64,000 bases of DNA, from NCBI GenBank assembly GCA_001794125.1, contig MGJF01000002.1, positions 236,514-300,513 on the forward strand. Direction: 5' to 3'. The position numbers and the translations under genes were made by a program. Under the pieces are notes generated by a model. It ran no database searches. It was not told the DNA's origin and saw only the letters and a program-made list of their open reading frames with translations. This DNA comes from Candidatus Yanofskybacteria bacterium RIFCSPHIGHO2_01_FULL_43_32. GTDB lineage: Bacteria > Patescibacteriota > Minisyncoccia > 2-02-FULL-40-12 > GWA2-44-9. Positions 1,181-23,392 of the stretch are shown piece after piece (position 1 is the first letter of the stretch; each line of letters begins with the position of its first letter).

Positions 1181-1202
1181 CCGGTTTTTAATTAAAATAA
1201 AT

Positions 1203-1217
1203 CCGCACAATGTGCGG
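1203..1217. terminator. Hairpin CCGCACA a TGTGCGG between convergent genes (bidirectional terminator-like)
   Basis: perfect 7-bp stem, AT-rich flanks. Confidence 0.4.
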
Positions 1218-1219
1218 TA

Positions 1220-1452
1220 TTAGCTTAAAGCTTTTGTTATAAGAGGCGACTTCATCTTTAATACTGCTCCCGGATCTGTCCTGTCGTCATAGTCCGTATC
1301 TACAGTAATCGACCCGCATACTATGCACCACCTGACAACATCACTCTCCATATCGCCTCCTGATTCATAAATTTTTACAAGCGTGTGTTTGCCATTTTTA
1401 CATTCTCTCTCAACAATTTTATCAACATTGGCCTTGTATTTTTCTCTTGTCA
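1220..1452 (-). CDS. Small hypothetical protein with CxxG/CxxC motif (track ORF extends to 1654; N-terminal extension probably not coding because it consists of a dispersed repeat)
   Basis: Met at 1452 preceded by GAGAGG RBS; upstream 1521-1605 is a repeat whose other copy (40929-41013) is intergenic. Confidence 0.4.
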
Positions 1453-3071: not shown

Positions 3072-4319
3072 ATGGATAAATTTGTTATCAACGGGGGAAA
3101 CAAACTCAAGGGCAAAATAGAGGTCAGGGGCGCAAAGAACGCCGCCCTTAAAATTTTTGCCGCTTCGGTTCTTACATCAGGAACCGTAAGAATAAAAAAT
3201 GTTCCAGAAGTGGAAGACATAGTCAGAATATCCGAATTACTGAAAAATCTTGGCGTTGAAGTTCTCCATCCCAAACACGGCGAGTATCGAATAACGGCCG
3301 CCAAAATAAAAACTTCGGCCATAAATCCGAAAATAGCCAAAAAACTCCGGGCTTCTATCGTGCTCACGGCTTCGCTCCTCGCCCGCGCCGGAAATGTTAA
3401 ATTTCCTCACCCGGGCGGATGCGTGATAGGCGAAAGGCCGATAGACATATTTCTGGACGGCTACAAAACATTAGGGGCAAAAATAAATTACCGCAACGGA
3501 CTTTATGAAATCAAAGGCAAGCTGATAGGCGCTAAATTTACGTTTAACAACGTAAGCGTCACCGGAACCGAGGCCATGATTATGGCCGCTTCTCTCGCCA
3601 AGGGCAAAACTATTTTAAAAAATTGCGCCTGCGAACCGGAAATAGAGAGTTTGGCAAATTTTTTAAATTCATGCGGAGCCAAAATCCAGGGAGCGGGCAC
3701 TCCTTTCATCGCGATTGAAGGGGTAAAGAGTTTAATTGGGGGCGAATATCAAACCATCCCCGACAGAATAGAGGCCGGAACGTTCGCTATTTTAGCGGCG
3801 GCGACAAAAAGCAATATTTTAATAAAAAATTGCGAGCCGGAACATTTGGATTCTTTGTGGAATGTATTGAGAAAGGCCGGCGTCCGTTTAAATATAGGCA
3901 AAAATCAGGTTGAGGTCATTCCTTCCGGATTAAAAACCGTAAACGTCAAGACCCATGAGTATCCCGGGTTTCCTACCGATTTACAGTCGCCTGTTTGTGT
4001 GCTATTAACTCAAGCAGAGGGTCAGGGACTGGTTCACGAAACAATTTACGAAGGGAGACTGCTCTGGACCGAAGAGTTAAAAAGAATGGGCGCGAATGTT
4101 TTGATGCACGACCCCCATAGAATTTCCATACAGGGACCGACAAAGTTGAGGTCCAGAAATATTGAAAGTCCTGATTTGCGGGCGGGAATGGCATATCTTA
4201 TCGCGGTGCTGTGCGCAAAAGGAAAGTCGGTTATCAATAACGTGTATCAAATCGACAGGGGATATGAAAAAATAGAGGAGCGCTTAAGAAAAATAGGGGC
4301 GGATATAAAAAGAATTTAA
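3072..4319 (+). CDS. murA: UDP-N-acetylglucosamine 1-carboxyvinyltransferase
   Basis: MDKFVINGGNKLKGKIEVRGAKNAALKI... and catalytic Cys region PHPGGCVIGERPID. Confidence 0.9.
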   Translation: MDKFVINGGNKLKGKIEVRGAKNAALKIFAASVLTSGTVRIKNVPEVEDIVRISELLKNLGVEVLHPKHGEYRITAAKIKTSAINPKIAKKLRASIVLTASLLARAGNVKFPHPGGCVIGERPIDIFLDGYKTLGAKINYRNGLYEIKGKLIGAKFTFNNVSVTGTEAMIMAASLAKGKTILKNCACEPEIESLANFLNSCGAKIQGAGTPFIAIEGVKSLIGGEYQTIPDRIEAGTFAILAAATKSNILIKNCEPEHLDSLWNVLRKAGVRLNIGKNQVEVIPSGLKTVNVKTHEYPGFPTDLQSPVCVLLTQAEGQGLVHETIYEGRLLWTEELKRMGANVLMHDPHRISIQGPTKLRSRNIESPDLRAGMAYLIAVLCAKGKSVINNVYQIDRGYEKIEERLRKIGADIKRI

Positions 4320-4322
4320 AAA

Positions 4323-5324
4323 ATGAAGAAAATAGGCATCGATCTCGGCACAACTAATACTGTGGTATTCATACCCAAAAAGGGAATTATCATCAATGAA
4401 CCTTCTGTTGTCGCCATTTCCATTTTAGACAATAAAATAATGTCCGTCGGCAATCTCGCCAAAGAAATGATAGGCCGGACGCCTGACAGTATTATCGTAT
4501 CCAAGCCGTTGATTGACGGCGCCATCGCCGATTACCGCGTTACGGGAGCAATGCTCCGTTATTTCATCAAAAGGGCCGGAGGATTCTTGAGTTTTGTTAA
4601 GCCGGAAGTTTTGATATCGGTTCCGGCAGGAATTAACTCCACCGAGAAAAGAGCAGTTATTGAAGCGGCGCTCAATGCGGGAGCCAAGGCGGTTTATCTT
4701 GTCAAAGAGCCGGTGCTTGCCGCCATCGGAGCCAAGATATCCATAAACAGTCCGGCGGGAAATATGATTTTGAATATCGGAGGAGGCACCACCGAAATAG
4801 CCGTCATTTCCCTCGGCGGAATTGTAACCTGGAAATCAGTCCGCATCGGCGGAAATAAGCTTGATCAGGCAATCGTTGAATATATTAAAAAGAAACACGG
4901 CCTGGCAATCGGCGAAAGAACCGCCGAACTTCTTAAAATTTCCATCGGAAGCGCCATGAAAGTGCCCGAAGAGGAAAAAATAAATATCAGAGGAAGAGAT
5001 CTTGCCACCGGCTATCCTAAAACAATTGAAATAACCACCAACGAAATCACCGAAGCCATCACCGAACAACTCCGGGAAATAGTCCAGATAATTAAAAGCG
5101 TCCTTGAAATAACCCCTCCGGAACTTTGCTCGGACATCATGGACAAAGGAATTCACATTTCCGGAGGCGGAGCTTTGCTTAAAAACATAGACAAGCTGAT
5201 TACCAAAGTAACAGGCGTTCCGGCAACGATTGCCGACGATCCGCTATTCTGCGTCGCCCGCGGCACAGGCATAGTTCTTGAGAACCTGGATATCTACAAA
5301 CGTAATGTTCTCGCAAAAAGATAA
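4323..5324 (+). CDS. mreB: Rod shape-determining protein MreB (actin-like ATPase)
   Basis: [16 protein letters not shown]... phosphate-1 motif and actin-fold throughout. Confidence 0.9.
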   Translation: MKKIGIDLGTTNTVVFIPKKGIIINEPSVVAISILDNKIMSVGNLAKEMIGRTPDSIIVSKPLIDGAIADYRVTGAMLRYFIKRAGGFLSFVKPEVLISVPAGINSTEKRAVIEAALNAGAKAVYLVKEPVLAAIGAKISINSPAGNMILNIGGGTTEIAVISLGGIVTWKSVRIGGNKLDQAIVEYIKKKHGLAIGERTAELLKISIGSAMKVPEEEKINIRGRDLATGYPKTIEITTNEITEAITEQLREIVQIIKSVLEITPPELCSDIMDKGIHISGGGALLKNIDKLITKVTGVPATIADDPLFCVARGTGIVLENLDIYKRNVLAKR

Positions 5325-5349
5325 AACCGCCAAATAAAAAGGCCGGCGA

Positions 5350-5775
5350 TTACGCCGGTTTTACCTTACCATGTTGAGTGATTGTTACCGTTCGACCGTC
5401 TGGGTCTCTCGTTTCAGCTAAAGTACAACAAAAATACATCTTGGGATTTCCCGGCCTTGAAACCGGAGTATCCATTTCCATCAGCTTCTTGAGCACTTCA
5501 GGAACATTTTCTACATCAAATCCCAGCCCGTGGGGGCTGACCACTGGCAATCCAGATTTCAACGGATGGATCTCAAAGAAAATTCTCTGTCCGCCATGCT
5601 CAAGAATATCAAGATAATGATACTCTCCACTCCACTCGCCTCGGGACTTCTGGAGGTTGAGTCCGATCGCATTATAGAATTCGGCTGTCTTGTCCATAAA
5701 TACCGAAAAAAGGGTGATACGACTTACAGCCACATCGATGGTCATTGCTTTCTCCCAATAAAAGAACTTGGACAA
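5350..5775 (-). CDS. VOC/glyoxalase family protein (start more likely at 5745, MTIDVAV...)
   Basis: glyoxalase-like beta-alpha-beta motifs; size 130-140 aa. Confidence 0.55.
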   Translation of the reverse strand: MSKFFYWEKAMTIDVAVSRITLFSVFMDKTAEFYNAIGLNLQKSRGEWSGEYHYLDILEHGGQRIFFEIHPLKSGLPVVSPHGLGFDVENVPEVLKKLMEMDTPVSRPGNPKMYFCCTLAETRDPDGRTVTITQHGKVKPA

Positions 5776-5832
5776 AGAATATCAGAATCCGGGACTCTTT
5801 GTAAACATTCCCGATTGTGATATTAATTACAC

Positions 5833-6924
5833 ATGAGAATCGCATTCGTGCATGACTGGCTGAACAACCTCGGCGGGGCCGAGAGGGTTTTGGTGGAACT
5901 CCACAAGATATTTCCGGACGCGCCGATATATGTCCTTTTTTCCAATAAAAAATTTGTCCGGGAATTTCTGCCCGACGCGGAAATCAGAGCAAGTTCTCTC
6001 CAAAAAATTCCTTTAATAAACAGATTATACAAATATTTATTTTTCCTGATGCCGCCGGCAATTGAGTCTTTTGACCTGTCTGGTTTTGATATTGTTATAT
6101 CTTCGTCAGTCATATTTTCCAAAGGTCTGGTTCTAAAACCAAAAACAAAACACATCTGCTACTGCTACAGCCCGACGAGATTTTTGTGGGACAGGCATGC
6201 TGAATATGAAAACCGGGGTGTATTGGCTGGATTGTCCCGTCATTTATTGAGAATCTGGGACAGGCAGGCTTCGGACAGGGTGGACAAGTTTATCGCCATC
6301 TCCGAGCATGTCCAATCAAGAATTAAAAAATATTACGGCAAAGAGTCACAAATTATTTACCCCCCAATATCCCCAACCTCATACCCGACACGCCGTGTCG
6401 GACATGAGAAATCTGTGGATAACTCGGAATATTATTTAATAGTAAGCCGGCTTTTTCCTCATAAAAATATAGACATTGCGATAGATGCATTCAATAAATT
6501 GGGGTACGAACTCGTGATCATCGGCGACGGACCGGCCAAGAACAACCTGAAAAAAAAGGCCGGCAAGAATATAAAAATCCTCGGATACAAAAAAGATGAA
6601 GAGGTTGGGAATTACTACCGCAACTGCAAAGCGTTCATCATGCCCCAGGAAGAAGATTTCGGACTGACACCTCTTGAAGCAATGAGCTTCGGCAAGCCGG
6701 TATTGGCTCTCCGGAAAGGCGGAGCGCTGGAAACGGTAGCAGAAAATATCACCGGAGAATTTTTTGACGACCCGATTCCGGAGGCGCTGGCCGACGGCGT
6801 CCGCCGCCTGAACAAGAATTACAAAAATTATAACCCCTTAATTATCCGGAAATGGGCCGAAAAATTCTCACGGGACAGATTCCGGAAAGAAATGTTAAAA
6901 TTAGTAAACGAAATATGCGGCTAA
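5833..6924 (+). CDS. Glycosyltransferase family 4 (GT-B, group 1)
   Basis: MRIAFVHDWLNNLGGAERV... N-term and C-terminal EEDFGLTPLEAMSFGKPV motif. Confidence 0.8.
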   Translation: MRIAFVHDWLNNLGGAERVLVELHKIFPDAPIYVLFSNKKFVREFLPDAEIRASSLQKIPLINRLYKYLFFLMPPAIESFDLSGFDIVISSSVIFSKGLVLKPKTKHICYCYSPTRFLWDRHAEYENRGVLAGLSRHLLRIWDRQASDRVDKFIAISEHVQSRIKKYYGKESQIIYPPISPTSYPTRRVGHEKSVDNSEYYLIVSRLFPHKNIDIAIDAFNKLGYELVIIGDGPAKNNLKKKAGKNIKILGYKKDEEVGNYYRNCKAFIMPQEEDFGLTPLEAMSFGKPVLALRKGGALETVAENITGEFFDDPIPEALADGVRRLNKNYKNYNPLIIRKWAEKFSRDRFRKEMLKLVNEICG

Positions 6925-19515: not shown

Positions 19516-20538
19516 ATGGGTGGCAAAGATAGTAAAATTAAACCAATGACAAATCATAAGATTGTAATTGGCGACTCAAGGAAAATGGCAGAGATTGCCG
19601 ATGAATCTGTCCAGCTTGTTATTACTTCGCCTCCATATTGGCAACTCAAGGATTATGGATCAAAAAATCAAATTGGTTTTGACGATTCTTACGAGGACTA
19701 CATAAATAATTTAAACTTGGTTTGGAATGAGTCATATCGTGTCTTAAGTCCGGGTTGCAGACTTTGTATAAACATAGGAGACCAATTTGCTCGCTCCGTT
19801 TATTATGGAAGGTATAAAGTCATTCCAATTCGAACGGAGATAATTAAGTTTTGCGAAACCATCGGTCTTGATTATATGGGCGCCATAATTTGGCAGAAAG
19901 TTACAACGACAAACACAACAGGTGGCGCAAGCATTATGGGCAGTTTTCCATATCCAAGAAATGGTATTTTGAAATTAGATTATGAATTTATTTTGATTTT
20001 TAAAAAACCAGGAGCACTACCTCAACCACCCGAAAACATTAAAGAGAAATCAAGATTAACAATAGACGAGTGGAATAAATATTTTGCAGGACATTGGAAT
20101 TTTAACGGTGCCAGACAAGAGCAACATTTAGCCATGTTTCCGGAAGAGTTGCCAAAAAGACTTATAAAAATGTTTAGCTTTGTGGGGGAGACGGTACTCG
20201 ACCCTTTTTTAGGAAGTGGTACAACTACTTTGGCGGCAAAGAATTTAGAACGAAATTCTGTCGGATACGAAATTAATAACAATTTTCTGCCACTTATTAA
20301 GGAAAAAATAGGGGTAAATCAAAAAAACTTGTTTTCTAATGCCAAATTAGAATTTGTTAAGCAAAACAAATTCAACCAGGATTTTAAAATAGCCGTTGCC
20401 GACCTATCTTACGTTTTTAAAGACCCGATAAAAATTACGAGGAATATTAATACTAAAAAAATGAAGTTTGGTTCGAAAATTGATTCATCTGACTTTAATT
20501 ATAAACCCTTAAAGTTAAAAGAAGCATTCTTTAAATGA
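19516..20538 (+). CDS. Type II DNA methyltransferase, beta-class amino-MTase (N6-adenine or N4-cytosine)
   Basis: motif IV VITSPPYW precedes motif I DPFLGSGTT. Confidence 0.8.
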   Translation: MGGKDSKIKPMTNHKIVIGDSRKMAEIADESVQLVITSPPYWQLKDYGSKNQIGFDDSYEDYINNLNLVWNESYRVLSPGCRLCINIGDQFARSVYYGRYKVIPIRTEIIKFCETIGLDYMGAIIWQKVTTTNTTGGASIMGSFPYPRNGILKLDYEFILIFKKPGALPQPPENIKEKSRLTIDEWNKYFAGHWNFNGARQEQHLAMFPEELPKRLIKMFSFVGETVLDPFLGSGTTTLAAKNLERNSVGYEINNNFLPLIKEKIGVNQKNLFSNAKLEFVKQNKFNQDFKIAVADLSYVFKDPIKITRNINTKKMKFGSKIDSSDFNYKPLKLKEAFFK

Positions 20539-21128
20539 AAACTCTCAAAATTGATAATAAAAAGCTCCTTGAACTTCTAAATATTGAGCCGCCTAAATTT
20601 GCAAAATATTCCGGGCCTCTAATGAATTTAGCAAATCGGTTTATTGGCGGCACTAAACCAAAAGTAGTGGGACAAATGAGCGAGTTAATAAAAGAATTTG
20701 ATGGCAAAACTTTTAAAGAGTGGGAAAGTTGGTATTTGAAAAAACATCCTAAAGCTATTGATGCGGCAGTAGAGAAGATTACCCAAATGCTCATTAATTT
20801 TAAAGATGTTTTAGAAAAAACCGACGAGGCATCTATAAAAAGGTGGGTGCGTGACCTTGTAATTATTAAGACATTTGTCGGCTTGAAAAATCAAGAGGCA
20901 ATTTTAAAATCAGTTGCCGAATATTTTAAAACTGAATATAGATCGGCCAAACCAGCAGAGGAGTCAAAAGGAATTGACGGTTTCATCGGAGAAAAATCTG
21001 TAAGCATTAAACCGCATACATACTTACTCAAACCTGAACTATTGGAAAAGATTGAAGCTCCCATTATTTACTACGAAAAGACAAAGACCGGACTCAAAAT
21101 ATATTTCCCAGAAAACTTAACAAAATAA
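20535..21128 (+). CDS. Putative cognate type II restriction endonuclease (assignment by context only)
   Basis: start codon overlaps MTase stop (ATGA); 197 aa, no recognisable family motif. Confidence 0.4.
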   Translation: MKTLKIDNKKLLELLNIEPPKFAKYSGPLMNLANRFIGGTKPKVVGQMSELIKEFDGKTFKEWESWYLKKHPKAIDAAVEKITQMLINFKDVLEKTDEASIKRWVRDLVIIKTFVGLKNQEAILKSVAEYFKTEYRSAKPAEESKGIDGFIGEKSVSIKPHTYLLKPELLEKIEAPIIYYEKTKTGLKIYFPENLTK

Positions 21129-21304: not shown

Positions 21305-22048
21305 TTATCTTATTTTCTTCAACCAATACTCATTCTCCCAAGCCCATAAATCTTTGCAGGCTAAGAAGGCCTTGATATCGGAGTCAAAGGTGTTTAGTTC
21401 TTTTATTTCTACTTCGCCTTTCATTGGACCCCATTCGTGTTCACATTTTCCTTTTTCGCCACGGATTTTTTCCCGTCCGCCTTTGTCGCGCATGGTTGCC
21501 GGGCATCTTAAGCAATGTTTTGACTGGTCAAGACGCAATATCCAGCGGGTAAGGGGAGGGAGGGTTTTGTCCTCGCTTAAAGCTTCTATGTAAGCCGAGG
21601 TCTGCATGCTGTAGTCGCGGTATATCGCCATTGAGGTTTTGATATCCAAGACGCCCAAAACGCCGTTTAATTCGGCCAGAACATCCATAGTTCCGGCAAA
21701 ATGGTGTTTTTTTGACACAACTCTCTCTTCTATCTTGTGGGCGATCACCTCGTTCTTATTATAAAAATCCATAAAAGCGGAGACGGCCGGTTTGACCTGG
21801 TCGGGGATAACGATAGGTTCTTTTCTCAAAATCGCCTCAACCGTTTCGTGAAGCAATGTCCCTTCTTCCGCGGACTTGGATTTAATATCTTCCCCGGTCT
21901 TATAGTCAGGCAATCCGGCATAAAACATATAAAGTGCCGGTTTGGCTTTGATTGAAACAATCGACGTAACCCGCGGATACCAAATTCCGTCTATTGTGTA
22001 GCCGTTGCCTTCTTTAAAACTATCTACTGTTGTGTACCAGTTGCTCAT
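21305..22048 (-). CDS. PD-(D/E)xK nuclease, Cas4/RecB-like with C-terminal Cys cluster
   Basis: DVLAELNGVLGVLDIKTS D..D/E.K core; CLRCP...C...C cysteines. Confidence 0.6.
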   Translation of the reverse strand: MSNWYTTVDSFKEGNGYTIDGIWYPRVTSIVSIKAKPALYMFYAGLPDYKTGEDIKSKSAEEGTLLHETVEAILRKEPIVIPDQVKPAVSAFMDFYNKNEVIAHKIEERVVSKKHHFAGTMDVLAELNGVLGVLDIKTSMAIYRDYSMQTSAYIEALSEDKTLPPLTRWILRLDQSKHCLRCPATMRDKGGREKIRGEKGKCEHEWGPMKGEVEIKELNTFDSDIKAFLACKDLWAWENEYWLKKIR

Positions 22049-22728
22049 TTGTTTTGCATGTACTTTTCCCAGTAATGGAAAAGTTCCTTGGTTGCTTTAA
22101 TGTCGTCAAAACAATATTTGGCTATCTTGAGATATTCTTTTTCTTTATAGAGGCGGGCCACATCGTCGCCGCTGACGCCTTTTGCCTTCGGACTTGATAT
22201 GCCGAATGCCTGGCACCACATATGAAGATTCCTTTTGAACCTTACTGCTCCAAAATTAGTCAGCCGGTCGTAAAGGTCGAAATGCGGAGCATCATAATAC
22301 CGGTTGTGGATCAAGCTCTTGGTCGGTTTAATTTTCAGTATAGCCGAGCGTATGGTCACAAACGGGCAATCAAAAGAATGGCCATTGAAGGTAATGAATT
22401 GATTATAATGGGTCGCCGATTCCCAAAAATGCTCCAAAACCTCTTTCTCGTTGAGACACGGCACATATTGCGCATTCTTGTCCTCTGTTTTTTCTATATT
22501 TTTCCCCGCTTGAAAATAAACCGCGCCTTTATCAGTATCGGGGTTTAATATTCCAATAGCCACTACCTCCCCGGTAAGAGGGGAGAAACCGAGACCGTTT
22601 TTGACATTTTCAATCTCTTCCGGCGAGTCGGCATAAAAAAGCAAAAATTCTTTGGCTTTTTCATCCAAAGAATCAAATTCAACTCCCACAGTTTCTATGT
22701 CAAAGATTAACTTGGGGGAATTTAGCAT
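22045..22728 (-). CDS. DEDD-type 3'-5' exonuclease related to the PolB exonuclease domain
   Basis: Exo I motif IFDIETVG, RNase H-like fold cues; 4-bp overlap with downstream nuclease gene. Confidence 0.6.
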   Translation of the reverse strand: MLNSPKLIFDIETVGVEFDSLDEKAKEFLLFYADSPEEIENVKNGLGFSPLTGEVVAIGILNPDTDKGAVYFQAGKNIEKTEDKNAQYVPCLNEKEVLEHFWESATHYNQFITFNGHSFDCPFVTIRSAILKIKPTKSLIHNRYYDAPHFDLYDRLTNFGAVRFKRNLHMWCQAFGISSPKAKGVSGDDVARLYKEKEYLKIAKYCFDDIKATKELFHYWEKYMQNK

Positions 22729-22759
22729 GACTTATTTTAACTTAAAGAAAACTGTCCGG

Positions 22760-22867
22760 CAAATGTTATGCGATATAAAATGTTGCATAACATTTGCACA
22801 TTGTGCGAGGCACTAAAAATGGCCGGGGGAGTCCGGCTTTTCTTGCTTTAGTGCTTCGCACAATGTA
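22760..22867. promoter_or_regulatory. Nested palindromes upstream of nuclease operon: GCAAATGTTATGC/GCATAACATTTGC and CATTGTGCGAGGCACTAAA/TTTAGTGCTTCGCACAATG enclosing terminator hairpin 22823-22845
   Basis: read directly; 13-bp perfect and 19-bp (1 mismatch) inverted repeats. Confidence 0.45.
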
Positions 22868-22921
22868 GGTTATGCGACGTAAGTATTCTCTGTTTCAGAG
22901 CCCCGAGCCTTCCATGGCTAT

Positions 22922-23392
22922 TTATTTGAGTACGCTTAATATTCCTCTGAGCACCTGCGAGGTAATGGAGATAATCAATATGCTCAAGTTAATTCCTGTT
23001 ACGGCCGCTTCTTTCAAGAAGCTCGAAATGTCATTATAGGACACATTGCCTGAACTGAAGAACTTGCTGAAATCTATGTTCTGCGAGGGGCTTTTAACGG
23101 GACTTAGGGGTATTCCGGTACCAATATTTATCATCTGATCGAACCTAAGGCCGTTTATGGCATTGTTTATCAGATCGTTTACCGAAGCGGTAATGTCGTT
23201 TATTTGATTAATCGGATTTAAATCAAGTTTTAATTCTGTTGATTTGTTTGCGGGAATAGTATCTATTACATAAGCGCGCAGCGGAAGACTTCCGTTAAAC
23301 ATAAGGGCCGTAACGGCAATTCCAACCAAGAAACTTGCCACTCCCCACTTCCCCACCGCGCCTAAATAATTACGAAACCATATTTTATTCAT
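22922..23392 (-). CDS. Hypothetical membrane protein
   Basis: N- and C-terminal hydrophobic segments. Confidence 0.5.
   Translation of the reverse strand: MNKIWFRNYLGAVGKWGVASFLVGIAVTALMFNGSLPLRAYVIDTIPANKSTELKLDLNPINQINDITASVNDLINNAINGLRFDQMINIGTGIPLSPVKSPSQNIDFSKFFSSGNVSYNDISSFLKEAAVTGINLSILIISITSQVLRGILSVLK

Follow-up and report, generated by a model that had tools for sequence, protein, structure and literature searches.

We examined a 64-kb stretch of contig MGJF01000002.1 (hereafter the window), a chromosome segment of the Candidatus Yanofskybacteria type (Patescibacteria; Candidate Phyla Radiation, CPR). Our subject is a pair of overlapping minus-strand nuclease genes, here called EXO and PDEXK, together with the 193-nt spacer upstream of them. 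The best homologues of both proteins come from the same bacterial group. A preliminary description of this DNA had seen in the locus a two-nuclease operon with a Cas4-like member, preceded by an operator-like palindromic region and placed beside a restriction-modification (R-M) system. Our account turns on three features:

22045..22728, minus strand: EXO, a predicted stand-alone DEDDy 3'-5' exonuclease of the PolB-exonuclease-like family (PF10108/PF13482), 227 aa, assigned from profile and catalytic residues
21305..22048, minus strand: PDEXK, an MGME1-like, phage-exonuclease-like RecB-family PD-(D/E)xK nuclease with a C-terminal CxxC...CxH insert, 247 aa, assigned from motifs, fold and profile
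22853..22880, no strand assigned: dif-like core site of 28 bp in an 11-6-11 layout, 38-40 bits by position weight matrix (PWM), the only match in 64 kb

We consider the following combination probable as a whole: EXO and PDEXK are a housekeeping nuclease pair, PDEXK carries a zinc-ribbon-like insert, the pair has no tie to the R-M genes and a dif-type site lies upstream of it.

Two nuclease genes in a conserved neighbourhood

Both open reading frames (ORFs) named in the preliminary description are present and co-oriented. They overlap by 4 bp, the ATGA at 22045-22048, which holds a stop and a start codon. The operon proposed there was borne out, as a translationally coupled pair of genes for a DEDD exonuclease and a PD-(D/E)xK nuclease.

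EXO scored 67 bits against PF10108 (cut-off 24, E = 2.4e-18), the family to which it had been provisionally assigned, and also matched PF13482 and PF03104. Its catalytic residues D10, E12, D120, Y205 and D209 are invariant in an alignment of 16 homologues and correspond to the Exo I (DxE), Exo II (D) and Exo III (YxxxD) motifs. EXO shares these DEDDy motifs with the exonuclease domain of family B DNA polymerases and differs from it in standing alone, as a 227-aa protein without a polymerase domain. Weak matches in the PDB were to archaeal PolB exonuclease domains, and among phage families EXO matched phrog_403 (‘DNA polymerase exonuclease subunit’). The 2428 homologues come mainly from Yanofskybacteria and other Parcubacteria. 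From its motifs EXO is predicted to have 3'-5' exonuclease activity.

The nuclease motifs of PDEXK (D122, D135-x-K137 and Q149..Y153) are invariant among 24 homologues and make up the D...(D/E)xK triad and the QxxxY motif. Its AlphaFold model has a pLDDT of 76 overall and above 85 in the core. A Foldseek search of the PDB with this model placed human MGME1 (mitochondrial genome maintenance exonuclease 1) first, with E = 1e-7, a probability of 1.0 and a TM score of 0.46-0.56; RecE, AdnAB, Cas4 and Dna2 ranked below it. A profile built from the 24 homologues also matched MGME1 by sequence (E = 6e-4), with the catalytic motifs aligned, and this was the sole significant profile match in the PDB. 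The motifs that align between MGME1 (PDB 5zyv, 5zyt, 8xa9) and PDEXK are GxxxHE, E, D, DxK and QxxxY. The strongest family match of all was to a phage exonuclease family, phrog_298 (‘exonuclease’, E = 1.4e-24). PDEXK differs from MGME1 in that the two are ~15 per cent identical, in an extra CxxC...CxH beta-hairpin insert (residues ~177-217) and in the pairing of its gene with a DEDD exonuclease gene. MGME1 processes single-stranded DNA (ssDNA) ends and flaps of mitochondrial DNA (PMC4222359). By fold and motifs PDEXK is an MGME1-like exonuclease, and by analogy it is predicted to degrade ssDNA from a free end. We found nothing relevant on a bacterial MGME1 in the searchable literature.

The preliminary description had likened PDEXK to Cas4 and given it an Fe-S cluster. 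Cas4 proteins have four conserved cysteines, one N-terminal and three C-terminal, that bind such a cluster. PDEXK shares with them the RecB-like PD-(D/E)xK core and QxxxY, and its matches to their profiles are weak: it scored 20.7 bits against TIGR00372 (NCBIfam cut-off 65), and the Pfam scan gave no match to PF01930 (Cas4). Against PF12705 it reached 17.7 bits (cut-off 22), with the relatives P0257, P0271 and P0366 scoring 30-36 bits, above the cut-off. The profile searches that had been suggested for PF12705 and Cas4 left PDEXK itself under both thresholds. As for the C-terminal cysteine cluster, four cysteines do exist (C179, C182, C202 and C231), but the invariant set is C179, C182, C202 and H204 only, and C231 is Ala or Ser in several homologues. 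PDEXK has no N-terminal cysteine. We rejected a Cas4-like Fe-S identity because the family threshold was failed, the N-terminal cysteine is missing and the fourth cysteine varies; the nearest solved relative is MGME1, and PDEXK further differs from Cas4 in having no CRISPR or cas genes nearby, with housekeeping neighbours in the window and in 80 related loci. The invariant residues (C179-x2-C182 ... C202-x-H204) lie on predicted beta-hairpins of the AlphaFold model, and we infer from their pattern a zinc-ribbon-like CCCH insert in place of a Cas4-type Fe-S site. In a library clustered at 50 per cent identity, the full-length protein including the insert has only ~15 representatives and the nuclease core ~9,200.

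The 80 related loci came from a scan of one genome per species, and the window's neighbour proteins were mapped onto them (they carry L numbers where single ones are named). The conserved order across these species-level loci is GltX-(CPBP)-M23 peptidase-NDH-(hyp156)-EXO-PDEXK-(TypA)-hyp127-L27. EXO lies directly upstream of PDEXK in 27 loci, mainly close relatives, with a gap of -4 to +247 bp. A 28th locus with both genes (L047) has the pair split by a 1.5-kb insertion containing a glutamate dehydrogenase gene, and in the remaining loci PDEXK occupies the same slot alone, without EXO.

Shorter interruptions, AT-rich inserts of 100-150 bp, split EXO and PDEXK in six loci (L006 5896-5997, L007 5889-5997, L010 5859-5997, L011 5850-5997, L012 2924-3033 and L013 5901-6000). 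These inserts consist of short tandem units (TCTAAT...) followed by inverted copies (ATTAGA...); they can form long hairpins and destroy the 4-bp overlap.

EXO and PDEXK look like ordinary, lineage-wide DNA-maintenance genes and not like a defence module, and both are previously uncharted members of families already known. In the mechanism that we propose, they would act as a translationally coupled housekeeping DNA exonuclease pair of the Yanofskybacteria chromosome and, on the analogy of MGME1 and DEDD exonucleases, would most likely trim ssDNA ends or flaps of both polarities in replication and recombination. The pair would then form a core module for DNA maintenance in a CPR lineage with a reduced genome; its member PDEXK is a nuclease of the MGME1 type with a likely zinc insert. 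Three points weigh against this part of our account: the substrates are extrapolated from distant homologues (~15 per cent identity to MGME1), the PDEXK structure model is of only moderate quality (pLDDT 76) and zinc binding by the insert is predicted on a sequence basis only.

The 28-bp site upstream of the nuclease genes

When the spacer was compared with those of relatives, the 28-bp core was the only conserved piece. On the plus strand it reads GCTTCGCACAA TGTAGG TTATGCGACGT, and on the gene-sense strand ACGTCGCATAA CCTACA TTGTGCGAAGC. In 60 of 81 sources the PWM matched once per locus, and one further source came from a dyad scan (61/81); these copy numbers cover the 64-kb window and 7-13 kb per relative locus. 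The core is always found between the NDH/M23 block and EXO/PDEXK. Where genes have been inserted, it remains with the upstream NDH block, ~0.5 kb past NDH itself, and is 1-4 kb from EXO/PDEXK, and for this reason we downgraded a functional coupling between PDEXK and the core. The 11-bp arms show near-dyad symmetry around a variable 6-bp centre (nnTAnA), and across relatives the arms vary independently of each other. Independent arm variation together with a free centre fits recognition of DNA by a protein and argues against an RNA stem.

Sites of the dif type are ~28 bp long: two arms of 11 bp, in partial dyad symmetry, flank a centre of 6-8 bp (PMC5357621). The core has this layout, with two 11-bp arms and a 6-bp centre, as do E. 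coli dif (GGTGCGCATAATGTATATTATGTTAAAT) and Bsdif of B. subtilis in their partial-dyad arms. With the E. coli dif sequence of PMC3025954 as the seed, the plus strand of the core agreed at 19 of 28 positions, tied best among the ~128,000 28-mers of the window. Like dif/XerCD sites, the core has A/T-rich inner arm ends (..CAnAA / TTnTG..) and sits at a skew and orientation switch; in all the sequence examined it is single-copy. It differs from them in its almost symmetric arms (GTCGCA..TGCGAC), where dif has distinct XerC and XerD arms, and in a conserved yTCCCCT box 20-25 nt from one arm. The searchable literature describes no dif site for this CPR lineage.

The cumulative G-C maximum of the window falls at 21.0 kb, and a gene-orientation breakpoint lies at 21-21.5 kb. 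After correction for strand, the skew has a breakpoint at 22-27 kb in the direction of a terminus (permutation p ~0.03). In other lineages, transcription converges on the core, with NDH on the plus strand followed by a gene for an AMP-binding enzyme on the minus strand. Because the core lies at this switch of GC skew and gene orientation, we read it as dif: it is most likely a tyrosine-recombinase site, conserved in the lineage, that would serve as the chromosome's dif for the resolution of dimers by Xer. An origin of replication at this position was rejected; DnaA-box-like 9-mers are mildly enriched in the window and not clustered here, and the skew has the sign expected at a terminus.

In L041, L042, L044, L045, L046 and L049, the same slot upstream of PDEXK holds a tyrosine recombinase gene of the XerC/D type. 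The L042 recombinase combines both XerC/D domains (PF02899 and PF00589), and its gene adjoins one for an HNH endonuclease. Three of these loci (L042, L045 and L049) have another 11-6-11 site in place of the usual core, such as ACTGAGTGTAA TGGTTA TTATACTCAGT in L045; the dif-like sites of L044 and L046 are all degenerate, and none was found in L041. In the three loci with a replaced core, this arrangement spans 4414-6000 (L042), ~4900-6000 (L045) and 4419-6000 (L049). An Xer-type gene beside an 11-6-11 site recalls the linkage of xerS and difSL (PMC5357621), although the centre of the core is 6 bp against 11 bp in difSL. The near-palindromic arms of the core suggest a single recombinase species, as in XerH/difH, XerS/difSL and archaeal XerA/dif. 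Unlike these single-recombinase modules, the core has no recombinase gene adjoining it in the window's genome or in most relatives.

The yTCCCCT box is present 20-25 nt from the core in most relatives (L001-L079). In the window it is ACTCCCCC on the gene-sense strand, at 22825-22832, within a terminator hairpin loop. The box, as yTCCCCT(G), stands at a fixed distance on one side of the core and often in such a loop elsewhere too, and it still follows in four of the six recombinase loci (not in L041 and L044). To the right of the core, GGGG[AT] is found on the bottom strand in 34 of 52 loci and on the top strand in 2 of 52. In the host loci, G-rich motifs converge on the core from both sides, clearly on one (34 versus 2) and more weakly on the other (13 versus 2). 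A converging motif of this kind was nevertheless rejected, being weaker on that second side and not polar in phage copies of the site. As a weaker addition to the dif reading, the box may be an accessory or orienting element of the site's recombination system.

The remainder of the spacer holds the following features:

22759..22797, no strand assigned: inverted repeat I2, arms 22759-22776 and 22780-22797, 18 nt and 89 per cent complementary, with a 13-nt perfect core
22798..22866, no strand assigned: inverted repeat I1, arms 22798-22817 and 22847-22866, 20 nt and 95 per cent complementary
22821..22838, no strand assigned: G+C-rich hairpin inside I1, scored on both strands by a terminator scan
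22734..22762, minus strand: predicted sigma-70-like EXO promoter, -35 TTGCCG at 22762-22757 and -10 TAAAAT at 22739-22734, matching at 9 of 12 positions

The long inverted repeat that had been reported around a terminator hairpin is I1, for whose 20-mer 0 matches are expected in shuffled sequence. The reported 13-bp perfect repeat is real as the core of the longer I2, but this palindrome does not occur elsewhere in the window, and I1 likewise has no further copies within the 64 kb. I2 is made up of a back-to-back pair of orphan copies of the dif arm (22766-22776 and 22780-22790, 12.9 and 9.8 bits) and is specific to this genome: it is absent from the closest relatives (L002, L006, L007 and L010) and not conserved even at 85-93 per cent protein identity. 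I1 is a long terminator stem, in which the core arm at 22853-22863 and its flank pair with a further orphan arm copy at 22801-22811 (TTGTGCGAGGC, 10.0 bits by PWM). Its outer stem (CACTA..TAGTG) is also present in L002. The two half-sites of the preliminary description do occur, as GTTATGCGA at 22765 and 22869 (3 occurrences versus 0.47 expected), but they belong to an arm of the 28-bp site and to orphan arm copies; the second ‘TTATGCGA half-site’ corresponds to one dif arm's inner end. The spacer thus contains three orphan arms against 0.16 expected. Such arms are also found in some other loci (L024, L033, L035, L059 and L079). As a lineage-wide feature they were rejected, their density near the core being at background across relatives. 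The hairpin at 22821-22838 probably ends the upstream gene (22922-23392, minus strand). We propose, as part of the mechanism, that the ‘control region’ would not primarily be an operator and that its palindromes would be the dif-like core, three orphan arm copies and the terminator hairpin of the upstream gene.

The spacer folds with a z-score of -6.6 relative to shuffled sequence. Scans of it with Rfam 15 and for tRNAs gave no match at the gathering threshold; the sole Rfam match overlapping it was IS128 on the plus strand, at chance level (16.5 bits versus a gathering threshold of 80, E = 3). EXO is probably transcribed from the -10 box of the predicted promoter, which ends 5 nt before its ATG and whose -35 box is overlapped by I2. 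A TAAAAT or TAGAAT sequence also stands 5-8 nt upstream of the EXO ATG in L002, L006, L007 and L010. Because a -10-like box this close to the start codon recurs in close relatives, the EXO mRNA may be leaderless. Promoter-like matches are no commoner than in shuffled sequence. Before the EXO start codon we see no Shine-Dalgarno sequence, either in the window (22729-22739) or in the same four relatives.

Three further observations concern dif-like sequences. An intergenic palindrome, CCGCACATTGTGCGG (window ~1200-1227, minus strand), lies far from the core; its likeness to the dif-arm motif ACATTGTGCG may be due to chance, or it may be the stem of a terminator. In L016, a LAGLIDADG homing endonuclease gene (3682-4173) directly adjoins the dif-like site. 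In L056 (4415-4554, minus strand) and L059 (5639-5778, minus strand), a half-motif, ATTGTGCGAC, stands alone, and a perfect DnaA-box-like TTATCCACA comes after it.

Phage copies of the site and competing readings

We scanned 2.9 million viral contigs (IMG/VR) for the exact pattern of the core, leaving the four outer bases of the 28-mer free. The pattern was found in 95 contigs (L081-L175), with one copy each, where a rough estimate puts the chance expectation far below 1. The four free bases usually complete the 11-bp arms in these copies, and none of the 95 contigs carries the neighbour genes of the host locus. The commonest centres are GATATA, TGTATA and CATATA; the TGTATA of many phage copies is also the centre of E. 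coli dif. Relative to nearby phage genes, the copies occur in either orientation. Usually the copy is within ~0.8 kb of terminase genes. Pfam identified a terminase small or large subunit beside the site in four contigs, and the median distance from the site was 764 bp for large-subunit (TerL)-like ORFs (43 contigs) and 18 bp for small-subunit (TerS)-like ORFs (8 contigs). By a narrow profile, an Xer-like recombinase was detectable near the site in 1 of the 95 contigs; in L088, an integrase lies ~0.5 kb away. Examples of the viral sites are L140 5962-5985, L154 5546-5569, L167 4669-4692 and L149 6313-6336. In some phage copies the flanks read AACAGGGGT and ACCCCTGTT.

The host and phage data are most simply explained by a host-encoded recombinase that acts on a shared site. 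In its full form, this would make the 28-mer an undescribed dif of Yanofskybacteria and related Paceibacteria, exploited through the host's Xer by tailed phages that lack a recombinase and carry one copy by their terminase genes. We offer this fuller statement tentatively, as a possibility that falls somewhat short of likely. Host Xer would serve these phages for circularising terminally redundant genomes, for dimer resolution or for integration at dif. [quoted passage not shown] Like IMEXs, the phage contigs carry one host-dif-like site, mostly without a recombinase of their own; unlike them, the carriers here are tailed phages with the site beside terminase genes. CTXphi, VGJphi and TLCphi are filamentous phages, and GGI is a genomic island. 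In phage P1, loxP lies near pac, and the position of the phage copies near terminase genes can be likened to this.

Several observations weigh against a dif that phages share. Identity to the canonical dif is only 19/28, a score that one unrelated 28-mer of the window equals. The skew is of modest size and in part confounded with gene strand, and there is no Xer recombinase gene within the 64-kb window. In many species the core is directly upstream of EXO or PDEXK, where it could have a local operator role, and I2 could still repress EXO in this strain. Finally, the phage copies sit where cos or pac sites usually lie, which allows a reading without Xer.

The preliminary description had taken the palindromes for operators. 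In that reading, the nuclease operon is under the control of a transcription factor, possibly one that responds to DNA damage, which binds to the palindromes and to the 28-mer with them. The 28-mer does stand upstream of EXO in most relatives, or ~70 nt upstream of PDEXK where EXO is absent, and I2 overlaps the predicted -35 box. However, the search for the palindromes with which a regulon was to be defined found nothing beyond this spacer within the 64-kb window, and we rejected the palindromes and half-sites as a regulon signal for that reason. I2 is lost even at 85-93 per cent protein identity, including in the closest relatives, and no regulator gene is adjacent. After gene insertions the core keeps with the NDH block, 1-4 kb from EXO/PDEXK, and 95 phage contigs carry it next to terminase genes. 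These observations, together with the 11-6-11 layout and the resemblance to dif, make operators unlikely here.

The phage copies invite another interpretation, that the 28-mer is a phage attachment site (attB) or a packaging-related, cos/pac-like site, with the host copy as a conserved target. The existence of 95 viral copies, their median distances of 764 bp to TerL-like and 18 bp to TerS-like genes, and the integrase ~0.5 kb from the site in L088 are all in keeping with it. Yet in 94 of the 95 viral stretches the narrow profile detects no Xer-like recombinase nearby, and an intergenic attB is not expected to persist across family-level divergence without a function for the host. The host copy lies at the skew and orientation switch, and a packaging signal on the host chromosome would harm the host. 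We regard a site of purely phage function as improbable.

The 28-mer might also act as RNA, its 11-bp hairpin and the next hairpin forming a terminator, a processing site or a small RNA in the 3' UTR of the upstream gene. The very stable fold of the spacer (z -6.6), the pairing of the 28-mer over 11 bp with one G-U pair and the terminator-like hairpin that follows it in many relatives would suit such a role. It is the sequence, however, and not the pairing that is conserved: the arms change without compensation, as shown by TCTGA variants that are confined to the left arm in L009 and L011 and to the right arm in L055 and L004. The 28-mer is not followed by a U-tract, no Rfam match was found on this strand even at E up to 10, and the phage copies take either orientation relative to nearby genes. 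We rejected the RNA hairpin because the arms vary independently without compensatory changes, and we hold an RNA role to be highly doubtful.

The site provides a concrete dif candidate for these CPR bacteria. If it is the dif of this lineage, as we think most likely, it would mark replication termini in fragmented metagenome-assembled genomes and would help to orient and close CPR assemblies. The 95 viral contigs would make it a sequence tag that connects uncultivated phages to CPR hosts. If the phages exploit host Xer as tentatively suggested above, the exploitation of Xer, known in phages mainly from filamentous ones, would reach tailed phages.

The restriction-modification neighbour and the variable junction

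Downstream of PDEXK lies the R-M system that the preliminary description had placed beside the operon, and its presence was confirmed:

19516..21128, plus strand: type II R-M pair, an N4/N6 methyltransferase (PF01555) and an MjaI-type endonuclease (PF09568), assigned by Pfam and given for context only

The two R-M genes overlap by 4 bp and are inserted between TypA and PDEXK. The GC content of this patch is 0.34 at 20-21 kb, compared with ~0.42 in its surroundings, and the R-M pair was found in 0/80 of the related loci. Because it is absent from all 80 loci and low in GC, the R-M pair is a recent strain-specific insertion with no functional tie to the nuclease pair. The suggested check for co-occurrence with R-M or other defence genes showed no recurrent link: the variable neighbours are metabolic or transport genes, and other genomes have unrelated cargo at the PDEXK/TypA junction, such as an ABC transporter, a GFO/IDH/MocA oxidoreductase or an aminoglycoside nucleotidyltransferase.

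It is very improbable that the nuclease pair acts as a module of defence against phages or plasmids in cooperation with the adjacent R-M genes, for although the two pairs adjoin, PADLOC gives weak Cas4 matches for PDEXK and the nearest PHROGs are phage exonuclease families, EXO has no PADLOC match, the R-M pair is missing from 80/80 related loci, the junction inserts of relatives are metabolic or transport genes, and EXO and PDEXK are conserved, single-copy core genes whose housekeeping context is fixed. The defence reading is largely refuted because this housekeeping synteny is fixed across the lineage, the very pattern that the preliminary description had named as speaking against it. That description had offered ‘repair or anti-phage’ as alternatives; repair was the better of the two guesses, and the anti-phage module tied to R-M was not supported. 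A tempting but wrong reading of the locus as a ‘defence island’ is thereby removed.

The PDEXK/TypA junction looks like a local hotspot of gene gain near the putative terminus. Between PDEXK and TypA/hyp127, variable cargo is present in L002, L003, L009, L012, L013, L017 and L047, including an aminoglycoside-2''-nucleotidyltransferase-like protein and hypothetical proteins.

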